Virus record (IMG/VR): IMGVR_UViG_3300006056_000031
Location: 1 to 15,910 of that record
Length of the DNA: 15,910 bases
Reading direction: 5' to 3' (one strand)
Source: a virus
Lineage: Duplodnaviria > Heunggongvirae > Uroviricota > Caudoviricetes
The notes below the pieces were generated by a model. It searched no databases, was not told where the DNA came from, and worked only from the letters and a program-made list of their open reading frames with translations. A program made the translations under genes and the position numbers. This document shows, one piece after another, positions 2 to 11,176 of this stretch (positions within the stretch are counted from its first letter, which is position 1; the number at the start of each line of letters is the position of its first letter).

Positions 2-103
2 TGCTAACGATTTGCAGCTTGGCGTTCGGTTTTTGGCTTACCGAAATGTTCAAGTTTACCACAATACTAATAGCCAAAAACTGACGCTAAGGTGCTGTTA
101 TAG
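2..103. repeat. attC-like hairpin site 1
   Basis: TGCTAAC (2-8), 5-nt spacer GATTT, left arm GCAGCTTGGCGTTCGGTTTTTGGCT (14-38) complementary to right arm AGCCAAAAACTGACGCTAAGGTGC (72-95) with one extra T in the left arm, then T-GTTATAG (97-103). Confidence 0.85.
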
Positions 104-148
104 CCAGTGCTTTTAATGGAATTATTAACAATTAAACAAATATAAAAA

Positions 149-547
149 ATGGAAAAGATTTTAAGAATTGAAGAAACAACCTTCAAAAAAACAAAAGACG
201 ATTGGCAATCATTTGAAGGTTTCCAAATCATAACGGATTTACAAACTATCCAAATTGGAATTAGCAACGGTCAATCTTGTTGTGAAAATTTTGGATGTAT
301 AATCACCAACGATGAAACCAAAGAATTTATTGGTGCGGAATTAAAGTCATTGGCAATTGTTGATAATGCCTTGAATAATAAAAAGATTGAAGAATTGGAA
401 TATTTGGATAGCGGTGGGGCAATGTTTGTAAATCTTGAAACAAGCGAGGGTTTACTTCAATTCGTTGCCTATAATGCACATAATGGATATTACGGACACG
501 AAGCAGTTTTAGTCAGCAAGCAACTTAATCATGAAGAGGGTCTTTAG
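149..547 (+). CDS. Cassette ORF, hypothetical protein (132 aa, QSCCE motif)
   Basis: ORF with A-rich leader; bounded by inverted repeats 97-110 and 547-560. Confidence 0.85.
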   Translation: MEKILRIEETTFKKTKDDWQSFEGFQIITDLQTIQIGISNGQSCCENFGCIITNDETKEFIGAELKSLAIVDNALNNKKIEELEYLDSGGAMFVNLETSEGLLQFVAYNAHNGYYGHEAVLVSKQLNHEEGL

Positions 548-553
548 CATTGG

Positions 554-685
554 CTATAACGTTATTCAGCTTGTAGTCAGGCGTGGAATAGAAGCGTAAA
601 TTTTCGGATTAGAAACAAGTATTAAAAAACACGCAAGCGATTGGATAAAGCCTAAAGCCACGCTTGCTACAAACTGATGTTAGGC
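554..685. repeat. attC-like hairpin site 2 (132 bp)
   Basis: CTATAAC (554-560), spacer GTTAT, arm TCAGCTTGTAGTCAGGCGTGG (566-586) pairs with CCACGCTTGCTACAAACTGA (658-677) with one extra T, then T-GTTAGGC (679-685). Confidence 0.85.
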
Positions 686-686
686 G

Positions 687-908
687 ATGTATTTTATTAT
701 GAGTATTTTAGAAGCAGGAACAGAAATTAAAGAAAAACCAACAGTAGGTCAAGAATTTATGGAATGGGCTGAACAGTATTGGTTATTAGACAAATTAGTT
801 AAAATTGAAAAACCTGACGAGTTTGCAGGAGAAAAATGTGATTATGATTATATGCGTAATATTTTCATTGAAAAGATAAACGGAATTATTAAAGACAGGT
901 TGGGTTAA
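687..908 (+). CDS. Cassette ORF, hypothetical protein (start 687 or 699)
   Basis: 73 aa ORF bounded by inverted repeats 679-693 and 907-921; no recognisable domain. Confidence 0.75.
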   Translation: MYFIMSILEAGTEIKEKPTVGQEFMEWAEQYWLLDKLVKIEKPDEFAGEKCDYDYMRNIFIEKINGIIKDRLG

Positions 909-914
909 TATATC

Positions 915-1046
915 GCCTAACGATTCTCGGCTTTGTTTAGTGCGGGATTATGAAAACGAAATTATCAACTTAAAAATAAATTACAATGGAAAAAGAAAAT
1001 TTGAATGAAGCAGAAAAACCCGCATTGAACAAAACCGATGTTAGCA
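915..1046. repeat. attC-like hairpin site 3 (132 bp)
   Basis: GCCTAAC (915-921), spacer GATTC, arm TCGGCTTTGTTTAGTGCGGG (927-946) pairs with CCCGCATTGAACAAAACCGA (1019-1038), then T-GTTAGCA (1040-1046). Confidence 0.85.
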
Positions 1047-1177
1047 GTAGTGCCAAACGCAGAAATGAAATAACAAAGATACTATATCGAAATTCAACTG
1101 ATGATTCAGAGTGTATGAGAATTAGATTTGAGGACATTCAAAATATAATTGACTTGCTGAATGATTTATACGACTAA
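986..1177 (+). CDS. Cassette ORF, hypothetical protein starting inside hairpin site 3
   Basis: ATG 986 lies in the hairpin loop after an A-rich leader; the right arm and core encode PALNKTDVSSSA; stop abuts inverted repeat 1178-1192. Confidence 0.7.
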   Translation: MEKENLNEAEKPALNKTDVSSSAKRRNEITKILYRNSTDDSECMRIRFEDIQNIIDLLNDLYD

Positions 1178-1185
1178 GGCATTAC

Positions 1186-1317
1186 TGCTAACGGACTGCG
1201 TGTATAAGAAGTGGCGTAGAACTTACCAAAACATTACAAAAATTAACGAATTATAAATTAATAAATAACCAATCCAAAAATGCCGATAGTAGCCATTTTT
1301 TATACCCGCTGTTATCT
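1186..1317. repeat. attC-like hairpin site 4 (132 bp)
   Basis: TGCTAAC (1186-1192), spacer GGACT, arm GCGTGTATAAGAAGTGGC (1198-1215) pairs with GCCATTTTTTATACCCGC (1292-1309), then T-GTTATCT (1311-1317). Confidence 0.85.
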
Positions 1318-1346
1318 TTCAGTTGCGGGTTTTAAAACAAAACAAT

Positions 1347-1535
1347 ATGACAGTAAAAAATCTAATTAAGGAACTTCTTGATTATAATATGGATGCAGAA
1401 GTTCAAGTAATTGCACATTGCCAAAAGTATGATTATAGCATAACTATTGGAGGTTCAGAAGGAGTTGAAAAGAACAACACTAAAGAAGTTTCTTTTTATG
1501 TTGATGAATTGTGTAATAATGAAAATATAAATTAA
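1347..1535 (+). CDS. Cassette ORF, hypothetical protein (MTVKNLIKELLDY...)
   Basis: ATG 1347 after an A-rich leader is preferred over the TTG at 1323, which lies inside the inverted repeat. Confidence 0.75.
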   Translation: MTVKNLIKELLDYNMDAEVQVIAHCQKYDYSITIGGSEGVEKNNTKEVSFYVDELCNNENIN

Positions 1536-1536
1536 A

Positions 1537-1713
1537 ATGAAAGTTAATAAATTGGAAATTGGTAAAAACTATTACCATGGTAATTGCAAAAAGAAATTTA
1601 AGTGTGTAGAATTAAATACAAACATTGATGAAAACCAATCTGATTTTGTTGATTATAAAAAAACATTACACAGGTTTTACAATGACGATATGTACTTAAA
1701 TAAGCAAATGTAG
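1537..1713 (+). CDS. Second ORF of the last cassette, hypothetical protein (58 aa; absent from ORF track)
   Basis: Manual translation MKVNKLEIGKNYYHGNCKKKFKCVELNTNIDENQSDFVDYKKTLHRFYNDDMYLNKQM*; starts 1 nt after the previous stop, and its TAG overlaps inverted repeat 1713-1727. Confidence 0.7.
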   Translation: MKVNKLEIGKNYYHGNCKKKFKCVELNTNIDENQSDFVDYKKTLHRFYNDDMYLNKQM

Positions 1714-1720
1714 CAATTGA

Positions 1721-1778
1721 AGATAACTATTATATATACGCAACTTTTTATAAAACATCAATTATCAATAAGTTATAT
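1721..1778. other. Integrase-proximal att-like site without hairpin (candidate attI equivalent)
   Basis: AGATAAC (1721-1727) ... GTTATAT (1772-1778), only 58 bp, no long internal stem, ends 1 nt before the integrase ATG at 1780. Confidence 0.55.
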
Positions 1779-1779
1779 T

Positions 1780-2583
1780 ATGAAAAATCAAAAAATTATA
1801 AAGATTTGCGAAGGAAAGTTTATATATCTAAACTACTCGTCTAGAACAAGAGACAACTACTTATCCCATATAAAGCATTTTTTAGAAAGTCTAGGTGATA
1901 AACAAATTATACATTGTAATTCTTCTGATTTTCAATCTTACTTGGAAACTTATAACTTCACTTCAGTATCACAACAAAATCAAGTAATCAATGCTATTAA
2001 GTTTTTATATAGAGAAGTATTATGTAAAAAATACGACAAAGTCTCATTCAAAAGACCCAAAGCAGAAAAGAAACTACCTAGAGTTATTGATGGTGATTTT
2101 ATCAAACAGCAGCTTTCAAAGATAAAAAACCTAAAACACAAAACAATACTAACCTTAACATACTCAGTAGGATTGAGGGTGTCGGAAGTTGTTAATTTAA
2201 AAATTGAGGATATTGATTCTAAAAGGATGTTGATTCATATTAAAAACGCAAAAGGGAGAAAGGACAGAATTGTACCTCTTTCCCAAAACGTCCTAGAAAT
2301 ACTCAGGGTGTATTACCAACAATATAAACCAAATCAATTTTTATTCAATGGTCAAAATTCAATACAGTATTCAATAGGTAGTTGTCAAAAAATCTACAAA
2401 AAATATATAGATTCTAATTCATCAATACACACTCTAAGACATTCTTCCTTTACTAATCTACTTGAATCGGGTACAGATTTAAGGATAATACAAAAAATAG
2501 CAGGGCATTCCTCCTCAAAGACTACCGAAATCTACACACACGTTTCTAACAATCTACTTAGTAAGATTAAACTACCAATATAA
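1780..2583 (+). CDS. Tyrosine recombinase/integrase (integron-integrase/Xer-like, no IntI insertion)
   Basis: Catalytic set GLR, KGRKDR, HTLRH, AGH, TEIYTHV intact; N-terminal SAM-like helical domain (QNQVINAIKFLY). ATG 1780 preferred to TTG 1717. Confidence 0.95.
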   Translation: MKNQKIIKICEGKFIYLNYSSRTRDNYLSHIKHFLESLGDKQIIHCNSSDFQSYLETYNFTSVSQQNQVINAIKFLYREVLCKKYDKVSFKRPKAEKKLPRVIDGDFIKQQLSKIKNLKHKTILTLTYSVGLRVSEVVNLKIEDIDSKRMLIHIKNAKGRKDRIVPLSQNVLEILRVYYQQYKPNQFLFNGQNSIQYSIGSCQKIYKKYIDSNSSIHTLRHSSFTNLLESGTDLRIIQKIAGHSSSKTTEIYTHVSNNLLSKIKLPI

Positions 2584-4025
2584 TGACCACAAAGAAAAAG
2601 AAAAAACCAATAGTTGATGTAGATGTTCTTAATTCTGACCAAAAGGAAGCTTTTGAGGAATTAAGGGACTTTATATGCGACAGGGATGATGAGAATGTTT
2701 ATGTCCTCAAAGGATGGGCAGGTACAGGTAAGACCTTCTGTATAAGTATTCTTGTTAGATACATTCTGGAGGTGGTTCATCCCAAGAGTGCTTGGTATAA
2801 AATTGCTGTGACCGGACCAACTAATAAATCGGTTCGTGTTATAAAAAAAACTAGCAATCTAAGAAATCCAAGAGTTACTTTTCAAACCATACATAAACTT
2901 CTTGGTCTAACTGAGAAGATAACCAATGACGGACAACAAGTTTTTGTGAATCAGGAAAAAAACTTCAAACCACAGATCAACTCAATTAAGCTTCTAATTA
3001 TAGATGAGGTTTCCATGCTTAATGATGATCTTTTTCACGAGATCCTAAAATATAGAGACAAGCTAAAGATTATATGTATGGGAGATCCTGCACAGATACC
3101 CCCAGTTGGTAAACCTGATTGCATTCCATTTAGAGACGAGTTAGCAGATTCTTACGGGATAAAAACACTGCAACTCAAAAAGATAATGAGACAGAAGGAA
3201 GGTAATGCCATCATAGATGCATCTGTACTTATCCGGGAAGATCTTTGGTCGGAAAGAAATCCGGTTAATCCTGTCACCTCCTTAAATTCACTTGGTGAGG
3301 GTGTTGAATTTCTAAACCTTAATGATGGTGAAACAAGGAAGGGATTTGGTGATATACTTGCCAAATATTTTAAATCCGAAGAATTCAAAGGTGATTCAGA
3401 ATACTGTAAGATTATAGCATGGAGAAACAAGACCGTTTCCAGTATGAATAACATTGTTAGAAGGATCATATTTGGCGAGGATGAATGTAGAACCAAGATA
3501 CTTGTTGGTGAAAAACTAATTGCCAATTCCCCTGTTATAATACAGGGAAATCTTGTATTATTTAATACGAACGATGAGTTCTCAGTTGAGTCTACCAAAA
3601 TAAAGGAGATGAATATGGTTCTAAAAACATTCTTGCCACCTATAGAGGTGAAACTCAAGTTCTATGATGCGGTAGTTACGTATCTTGACGATGAGGACGA
3701 AATTGAAAAAACCTCCATAGAAATACTGCACGAGGATAGCGAAGCTGAATTTTCCAAAATAGCAAATCTTCTTAAGCTGAAGGCCATAGAAAAGAAGGGC
3801 AGGGACAAAAGCTGGATTGACTATTATGATTTTCTAAGAAACTTTGCTGATGTAAATTTTGGGTATTGCATCACCGCGCATAAATCGCAGGGGAGTACTT
3901 ATAACACATCTTTTGTGCTGGAGGATGATATAGATCAGAACTATAATGTGGTTGAGAGAAACCGAATCAAATACACTGCTTATACAAGATCGAGCAAAAA
4001 AGTCTACGTTTTGAAAAGATTTTAA
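2583..4025 (+). CDS. SF1B DNA helicase, T4 Dda/RecD2-like
   Basis: Walker A GWAGTGKT, Walker B LIIDEVSM, GDPAQIPPV, IMRQ, ITAHKSQGST, YTAYTR motifs. Confidence 0.9.
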   Translation: MTTKKKKKPIVDVDVLNSDQKEAFEELRDFICDRDDENVYVLKGWAGTGKTFCISILVRYILEVVHPKSAWYKIAVTGPTNKSVRVIKKTSNLRNPRVTFQTIHKLLGLTEKITNDGQQVFVNQEKNFKPQINSIKLLIIDEVSMLNDDLFHEILKYRDKLKIICMGDPAQIPPVGKPDCIPFRDELADSYGIKTLQLKKIMRQKEGNAIIDASVLIREDLWSERNPVNPVTSLNSLGEGVEFLNLNDGETRKGFGDILAKYFKSEEFKGDSEYCKIIAWRNKTVSSMNNIVRRIIFGEDECRTKILVGEKLIANSPVIIQGNLVLFNTNDEFSVESTKIKEMNMVLKTFLPPIEVKLKFYDAVVTYLDDEDEIEKTSIEILHEDSEAEFSKIANLLKLKAIEKKGRDKSWIDYYDFLRNFADVNFGYCITAHKSQGSTYNTSFVLEDDIDQNYNVVERNRIKYTAYTRSSKKVYVLKRF

Positions 4026-10810: not shown

Positions 10811-11176
10811 GCTGGTAAAACAACATTAGCTAAAATGTTAGTTGGAGAGAAAGACTATTGTCACAAAGAAGCTGATATGTATTTCATGGATCCCTATGGT
10901 AATTACAGATTTAATACTATGGAGTTAAAAGATGCTCATAAATGGTGTCAGGATGAAATGGAGTTTGTTATGACATATGAACATTCACCTGTAGTGGTAT
11001 CAAACACATTCACGCAGGAATGGGAAATGCAGCCATACTATGATTTAGCAGAAAAATATGGATATCGGGTTCATTCCTTGGTTATCGAAAATAGACACAG
11101 TGGCATCAATTCCCACGGTGTTCCCGATGAAACGCTGGAGAAAATGAAAAATAGATTTGATTTAAAACTCATATAA
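10811..11176 (+). CDS. 3' fragment of split AAA_33/N4BP2-like kinase
   Basis: AGKTTLAKM...EADMYF...VVVSNTF...HGVPDETLEKMKNRF; the frame is closed upstream by TAA at 10802-10804. Confidence 0.85.
   Translation, partial: AGKTTLAKMLVGEKDYCHKEADMYFMDPYGNYRFNTMELKDAHKWCQDEMEFVMTYEHSPVVVSNTFTQEWEMQPYYDLAEKYGYRVHSLVIENRHSGINSHGVPDETLEKMKNRFDLKLI

Follow-up and report, generated by a model that had tools for sequence, protein, structure and literature searches.

Introduction

Integrons are viewed as an invention of bacteria, dependent on a special domain of their integrase IntI, and the IntI insertion is thought to be necessary for the recognition of hairpins. Their cassette genes read away from the primary site attI, the Pc promoter is found at the integrase/attI end, and the intI gene is divergent. 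One partner in their recombination is folded and single-stranded, one strand is exchanged, and replication resolves the product. Here we compare integrons and other described systems with a locus at the start of a viral record, which was analysed as one stretch of 15,910 nucleotides (termed the window). As in integrons, represented by attI1 of class 1 and the Vibrio cholerae chromosomal integron, the window has a candidate double-stranded, non-hairpin site beside a recombinase gene. Also as in integron attI, one half of this site is conserved and platform-specific, and the putative crossover lies at an AAC/GTT triplet. Moreover, cassettes with imperfect hairpins appear to be inserted at the site, the newest nearest to it, and the first bases of each cassette pair with its own last bases. 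When the locus is read on the minus strand, the order is that of a classical integron, namely recombinase, attI, G/TT and cassettes.

Unlike the integron integrases, the recombinase is a protein of 267 amino acids without the IntI insertion, which scores below the integron-integrase cut-off. The cassette genes, in further contrast to integrons, point toward the site and thus in the same direction as the recombinase gene. Since they face the site, they cannot be expressed from a Pc-type promoter located on the attI side. Two more differences are that the paired end boxes measure 12-14 bp and carry a fixed G.T wobble, and that the platform shares a TATA box with the hairpins, in a host that appears to be a large phage.

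Clusters of two or more attC sites without an integron integrase nearby (CALIN) have been described in phages, for example in Polaribacter phage P12002L, where they were treated as classical attC sites that lack a cognate enzyme and an attI (Qi et al., 2023; PMC9892861). P12002L_attC1 was the sole site of the six tested that was not recombined by IntI1 (PMC9892861). Its sequence, given in the supplement of the same paper, has the form of the family analysed here, consisting of TAAC, G, a 4-nt spacer, a stem, the loop TCGTTTTAATG, the return stem, T and GTTA, and its loop is common to the 41-nt mini-hairpins of three of our loci (L016, L055 and L076). P12002L contains further such sites on the gene strand; no recombinase was found in this phage. 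The failure of IntI1 on P12002L_attC1 fits with a different cognate enzyme. Unlike the phage CALIN, the window has a dedicated candidate recombinase and a platform. The label CALIN would miss such a system, because it has no IntI and yet contains a non-IntI recombinase together with a platform.

In T4-type phages, small accessory genes located between stem-loops are shuffled among close relatives as promoter/stem-loop (PeSL) cassettes (PMC2839356, PMC4122927). The role of such arrays in large phages is what the PeSL cassettes and our locus have in common. Shuffling of PeSL cassettes is reportedly attributed to homologous recombination between the repeats, and neither a dedicated recombinase nor a fixed platform or an AAC/GTT crossover is known for them. 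The joints at our locus fall in a 4-base box beside the recombinase gene.

Finally, XerC/D and archaeal XerA are, alongside IntI, the closest relatives of the recombinase in both sequence and structure. The protein scores, however, under every Xer cut-off. Whereas dif-type sites are two-armed, this site is one-sided, since only its right half is conserved and its left half is variable and carried by the cassette. It would serve cassette capture rather than dimer resolution. In the literature we found work on classical integrons, the phage CALIN paper and the PeSL papers, but no description of a phage cassette system of this kind.

Results

The window and its relatives

The window makes up the initial 15.9 kb of a viral record of 79.9 kb, the completeness of which is estimated at 30%. 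Metagenomes of wastewater and freshwater from 13 studies contain near-identical DNA. Its genes include those for a Dda-like helicase, an Rnl1-type RNA ligase and a phosphoesterase, and this gene content points to a large phage. None of the window proteins has a close match among the proteins of cultured phages, and the helicase is less than 30% identical to any of them. Positions 1-1727 contain small ORFs with four imperfect hairpins between them, followed by the gene of the tyrosine recombinase (Table 1). The recombinase gene shares the plus strand with all cassette ORFs, which thus read toward the platform.

For comparison we used 80 related viral loci (L-numbers, 823 kb). Enough upstream DNA for counting platform conservation was present in 79 of the 80, whose recombinases are 61-88% identical to that of the window; together with the window this gives 80 sequences. 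All array variants are metagenome assemblies, in which the junction words must exist in reads. In addition, contigs of an independent wastewater run, which belongs to another study than the window (termed run X2), were compared with it. Weak joints of the 'skips' type, with sides of 20-26 letters, were left out of the evidence.

Table 1. Array, attI-like site and recombinase gene in window positions
Feature	Position	Strand	Description
Cassette unit 1	9-560	+	hairpin A and DUF7448 ORF 149-547; array truncated by the start of the contig
Cassette unit 2	561-921	+	hairpin B and ORF 687-908
Cassette unit 3	922-1192	+	hairpin C and an ORF that starts in its loop; order swapped in run X2
Cassette unit 4, newest	1193-1727	+	hairpin D (C of AAC at 1192, GTT at 1311), ORFs 1347-1535 and 1537-1713, terminal TAAC
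3' end of the last cassette, variable junction half	1713-1727	+	ends in TAAC; T1717 is wobble-paired (G.T) to the 5' end of the same cassette (1311-1326)
Candidate TAAC crossover box	1724-1727	+	homology between variants stops within these 4 bases, with breaks at -3 to 0 of the C
Conserved core of the attI-like site, TATTATATATAC	1728-1739	+	invariant TATA at 1733-1736, 5 bp from AAC
A/T-rich leader from the core to the recombinase start	1740-1779	+	moderately conserved; consensus ATTAA-AATCAATA, mean column identity 61%
Tyrosine recombinase gene	1780-2583	+	267 aa, Xer/IntI type without the IntI insertion; PF13495 and PF00589; catalytic R, K, HxxR, H and Y present

A conserved block without a fold precedes the recombinase gene

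The original prediction, made from the window alone, held that the last cassette ends in AGATAAC and is followed by an attI equivalent of 58 bp with neither a G-spacer nor a stem, which contains TATATATAC and ends in GTTATATT-ATG. The described elements were all found: AGATAAC is at 1721-1727 (with AAC at 1725-1727), TATATATAC at 1731-1739, and GTTATATT at 1772-1779, where it abuts the ATG at 1780-1782. The length of 58 bp is correct if counted from 1722 to 1779, but not as the interval between AAC and ATG, which measures 52 nt from behind the C to the start codon (1728-1779). As expected of a cassette end, GCAATTGAAGATAAC (1713-1727) is the reverse complement of GTTATCTTTCAGTTGC (1311-1326) except for one indel and one G.T position.

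The base that follows AAC in the window (1728) is T, as it is in 64 of 69 unique integrase-proximal sites, whereas 90% of 239 unique hairpin sites have a G there. This agrees with a site that lacks the G-spacer. A stem is likewise missing, since the segment 1716-1782 has a predicted folding energy of -1.5 kcal/mol (z = +0.79). Over the 69 unique homologous platform sites the mean z value is 0.0 and not a single site is below -2, compared to a mean of -4.9 for 273 hairpin sites.

The alignment of sequences upstream of homologous integrases, which had been proposed as a check, reveals AAC and TATNATATAT as conserved and the sequence to their left as variable (n = 80). TAAC/TATNATATAT is found 35-57 nt before the recombinase start in 80 of 80 sequences, with one substitution in L027. 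In an alignment of 58 sites (termed A1), AAC and the TATA at 1733-1736 are invariant, and conservation reaches at least 90% at T1724, T1728, T1737 and A1742. To the left of AAC the sites vary, except for the A-T of the cassette end, which gives rise to the wobble. Distances to the start codon differ by numbers that are not multiples of three, which indicates that the block is non-coding. The tight motif AACTATNATATAT has just two other matches across the 823 kb of loci, and TAACTATNATATAT occurs once in the window, where 0.15 occurrences are expected, and once in the whole 79.9-kb record. One part of the proposed site did not hold up. GTTATATT directly before the ATG is shared by only about 8 of the 58 aligned relatives and is thus not conserved, so that the conserved part is reduced to TAAC/TATNATATAT(A). 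The leader at 1740-1779 may contain accessory binding sites or a promoter. No platform motif was detected upstream of the 80 closest cellular homologues, which are mostly from Bacteroidota and at most 51% identical (66% for L085, a fragment of 184 residues); these homologues say nothing on the site.

These data also bear on whether the block is a decayed hairpin, that is, the last cassette's own site after loss of its stem. AAC (1725-1727) and GTT (1772-1774) are 45 nt apart, which is near the 41 nt of the mini-hairpin type. However, the block keeps its primary sequence while the recombinases diverge to 61-88% identity, in contrast to the variable hairpin stems, and none of the 69 variants folds. 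Moreover, the GTT before the ATG is not conserved, and AAC is followed by T instead of G. Decay, which the original prediction itself had named as one of two outcomes that would speak against it, is contradicted by the comparative data and is exceedingly improbable.

Array variants are joined to the block within TAAC

Six pairs of contigs (L047/L048, L047/L050, L070/L071, L042/L043, L052/L055 and L011/L076) are 97-100% identical over 846-858 nt on their right side, which covers the platform and the recombinase gene, and lose homology 3-5 bases before the C of TAAC. Moreover, L048 corresponds to L050 plus one hairpin-plus-gene unit of 797 nt, located between ...GCATAAC and TATCATATAT. A cassette X, which ends in ...GCATAAC, is common to both contigs; in L050 the platform follows directly, and the 851 nt to the right are identical. 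The extra unit of L048 thus lies between cassette X and the platform, which indicates that it was inserted at the platform.

Rearranged arrays were also seen. One shared cassette is found at the platform in L055 and internally in L016, and L016 and L032 share two blocks in swapped order, one of which adjoins the platform in L032. A contig of run X2 shows 0 differences to the window over positions 1723-3000 and 301 unlike letters before them, so that the integrase of this phage is found there behind a different cassette. In a second X2 contig the units 922-1192 and 561-921 are reversed, with a joint that is ambiguous over just five letters at the TAAC/G boundary. Judged from these sequence comparisons, the crossover is inside TAAC (1724-1727) and can be placed no finer than these four bases, within which we infer a cut at AA/C by analogy with integrons. 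An empty platform without a cassette was not found among the loci, and apparent breaks in the chain of units are indels in the end boxes.

Natural variants are therefore joined, and have gained a unit, exactly at TAAC. It follows that insertion takes place beside the integrase gene and that the cassette closest to this gene is the newest. This is what had been predicted, namely that new cassettes enter directly upstream of the integrase.

The same variants can be used to judge whether the block is a mere promoter or 5' leader of the recombinase gene, forming the passive end of an array in which cassette differences result from homologous or hairpin-to-hairpin exchange elsewhere. Such a role would suit an A/T-rich block 35-57 nt before a start codon, the more so as TATA tracts on the 3' arm of the hairpins also precede cassette genes and might be a phage promoter element. 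But swapping the last cassette needs a partner at the right end, and the breaks are inside TAAC in six independent pairs; nor does a passive end account for the exact insertion of a single unit at the junction (L048/L050). A scan of positions 1-2700 for sigma-70 promoters and terminators found nothing at the site, with no more matches than in shuffled sequences, and the window shows no enrichment of the T4-type late promoter TATAAATA. The tight motif is absent before other genes, and in L077 a second copy of the platform closes an array with no recombinase gene behind it. A promoter or leader as the sole function of the block is therefore improbable.

Each cassette consists of a hairpin and the gene to its right

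Hairpins were identified by a stem detector. All four hairpins of the window share one geometry, with AAC, five unpaired bases, stem-loop, one unpaired T and GTT, and three of the four measure exactly 119 nt from C to G. Over the 80 viral loci the density of hairpin sites on the plus strand upstream of the recombinase gene is 0.96 per kb, compared to 0.04-0.10 per kb elsewhere. Besides the G after AAC, the 239 unique hairpin sites are characterized by a T before GTT (91%) and an internal loop of 4-5 nt on one side and 1 nt on the other.

The limits of a cassette can be read from the one shared between L016 (2981-3255) and L055 (4004-4280). Homology extends from just after the left AAC, thus including the hairpin, to the right AAC; the bases that follow belong to the platform in L055 (TAGATTATATC...) and to another hairpin in L016. 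These limits define the unit as G-hairpin-GTTA-gene-TAAC. Each hairpin is accordingly part of the same unit as the gene to its right, and this explains why the last junction lacks one. No common sequence was found at the distal end of the arrays, where the left flanks of the first hairpins share just the usual form of a cassette end.

Each GTT is followed by 14 nt that pair with the 14 nt preceding the next AAC, most commonly by 13 Watson-Crick pairs and one G.T pair at position 11, and the same pairing is seen between the last hairpin and the integrase-proximal AAC. The T of the wobble (T1717, with its partner at 1321) is 11 bp from the crossover; it is 99% conserved family-wide and invariant in A1. 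The fixed wobble is possibly a strand selector. Mismatches in the hairpin stems, counted on the plus strand, comprise 706 G.T and 228 A.C, and this excess of G.T is an indirect hint that the plus strand is the folded one. On the minus strand the G.T wobble of the cassette ends becomes an A.C mismatch.

Measured from C to G over all loci, the hairpins fall into length clusters of 41, 80-83 and 117-121 nt. The 41-nt mini-hairpin type, with the loop TCGTTTTAATG, recurs in L016, L055 and L076 (e.g., L076:3536-3580). Beside the platform of L001 (5910-5950), and also in L024, there is a gene-less minimal unit, GTTATAAAATCGTTTTAATGTTTTATAAC, the end boxes of which are joined only by this loop. At the other extreme, L078:5198-5460 is a 'hairpin' of 262 nt, the loop of which includes the start of an ORF and most of a small gene. 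In the window, the ORF at 986-1177 also begins in a loop, that of hairpin C.

The recombinase resembles IntI and Xer proteins but falls below all family cut-offs

All best scores of the recombinase in searches with family models are under the respective cut-offs, with 167.7 bits for archaeal XerA (cut-off 220), 156.9 bits for the integron integrase model TIGR02249 (cut-off 265), 140.6 bits for XerC (cut-off 335) and 139.4 bits for XerD (cut-off 330). When the protein is compared to IntI4 (2a3v), residues 30-173 and 210-262 can be aligned, and the gap between the two blocks is 36 aa here versus 84 aa in IntI4. The protein would act like IntI without being one.

Its nearest homologues from isolates are only 36-38% identical and are annotated as integrases of Cellulophaga and Polaribacter phages. 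Tyrosine integrases of temperate phages are usually encoded beside attP, the core of which is shared with an attB of the host, and prophage junctions are then present in host genomes. Annotation and position would both suit a site that is the attP of the phage, used for integration into the host chromosome, with the cassette array as no more than its neighbour. However, phages that are otherwise identical differ in the left half of the site, and this half is always the end of a cassette. In addition, the record looks like that of a large phage of lytic type, given its Dda helicase, RNA ligase and phosphoesterase, and the motif is upstream of 0 of the 80 closest cellular homologues. We consider an attP very improbable.

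The Dda-like helicase is not a conserved partner after the recombinase, because among the loci it has this position in the window only. L076 is the sole locus with a homologue (1970-3418, 68% identical), which is found upstream of the array, indicating that the module of array and recombinase is placed differently in related phages. In the window, the stop codon of the recombinase gene and the start codon of the helicase gene overlap (TAATG, 2581-2585), a coupling that is not kept in relatives.

Platform and most hairpins share the position of a TATA box

All of 62 platform sites have the start of TATA at +6, that is, 5 bp from AAC. The anchor pattern had demanded TATA within 2-6 bases of AAC, so that its presence is partly built in, but its fixed position is not. 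On the 3' arm of the hairpins, TATA starts at -10 in 150 of 237 unique hairpins (63%) and at -8 in 39 more, and the commonest start of its partner on the 5' arm is +10. Once the 4-nt/1-nt internal loop is set aside, the box of the hairpins is also 5 bp from AAC/GTT. In the window itself, just one of the four hairpins has the TATA box. The same distance in both types of site makes the platform look like a double-stranded copy of the hairpin base. One enzyme could read both types through the common position of the box, which is a putative recombinase-binding element. The tract could instead, or also, be a promoter element.

With a probability of roughly 85%, we regard positions 1724-1779 as the double-stranded primary recombination site, an attI-like platform, of an integron-like cassette system carried by a phage. 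The block is present in 80 of 80 sequences and does not fold, and the junctions as well as the insertion of a single unit are located exactly there; the central claim of the original prediction, that the site is the attI equivalent, is thereby supported. In the proposed mechanism, the Xer/IntI-like recombinase encoded directly downstream would join an excised circular cassette, which presents the folded hairpin of its plus strand, to the platform by a crossover inside TAAC. The new cassette would thereby come to lie directly before the recombinase gene, with the previous cassette to its left and the fixed half TATTATATATA... to its right. The fixed half would mimic the base of a folded hairpin, with AAC, 5 bp and the TATA box. 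Adjacency and co-occurrence suggest the neighbouring recombinase as the catalyst, and its hairpin partner is presumably single-stranded.

A more far-reaching proposal, which we offer tentatively and at somewhat less than even odds, is that the system is a phage analogue of integrons with an origin independent of IntI. Its enzyme, a minimal Xer-like recombinase that lacks the I2 domain, would read folded plus-strand hairpins by means of the G.T wobble, the internal loop of 4-5 nt and the TATA box, and the platform would be a double-stranded mimic of the hairpin base inside the leader of the recombinase gene. If so, occupancy of the site would also tune expression of the recombinase, a tie that the original prediction had put forward as possible, and the newest cassette would be transcribed into its gene.

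An attI-like platform in this position would mean that a phage is fully equipped for gene capture, with recombinase, platform and hairpin cassettes, while using a simpler enzyme and reversed cassettes. With such an enzyme, the design of cassette capture would be either older or more easily evolved than thought. It would give phages a concrete route for swapping small accessory genes, probably including counter-defence genes, and published phage 'attC clusters without integrase' would gain a new reading. A site of about 16 bp (TAAC plus TATNATATATA) beside an enzyme of 267 aa is directly testable and could be a compact recombination tool.

Platform variants in divergent loci

Two loci deviate from the common arrangement. 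In L063 (5480-5650), a divergent relative, the platform has TTGAAC, and one hairpin is preceded by TATAAT in place of TATAAC; this hairpin may be a decayed site. L077 has a second copy of the platform (10889-10935), which is about 90% like the first over some 40 nt and closes a second array of hairpin cassettes. The second array is downstream of the recombinase gene and of a gene the size of the helicase gene, and no recombinase gene lies behind the second platform, which suggests that this copy is a platform used in trans.
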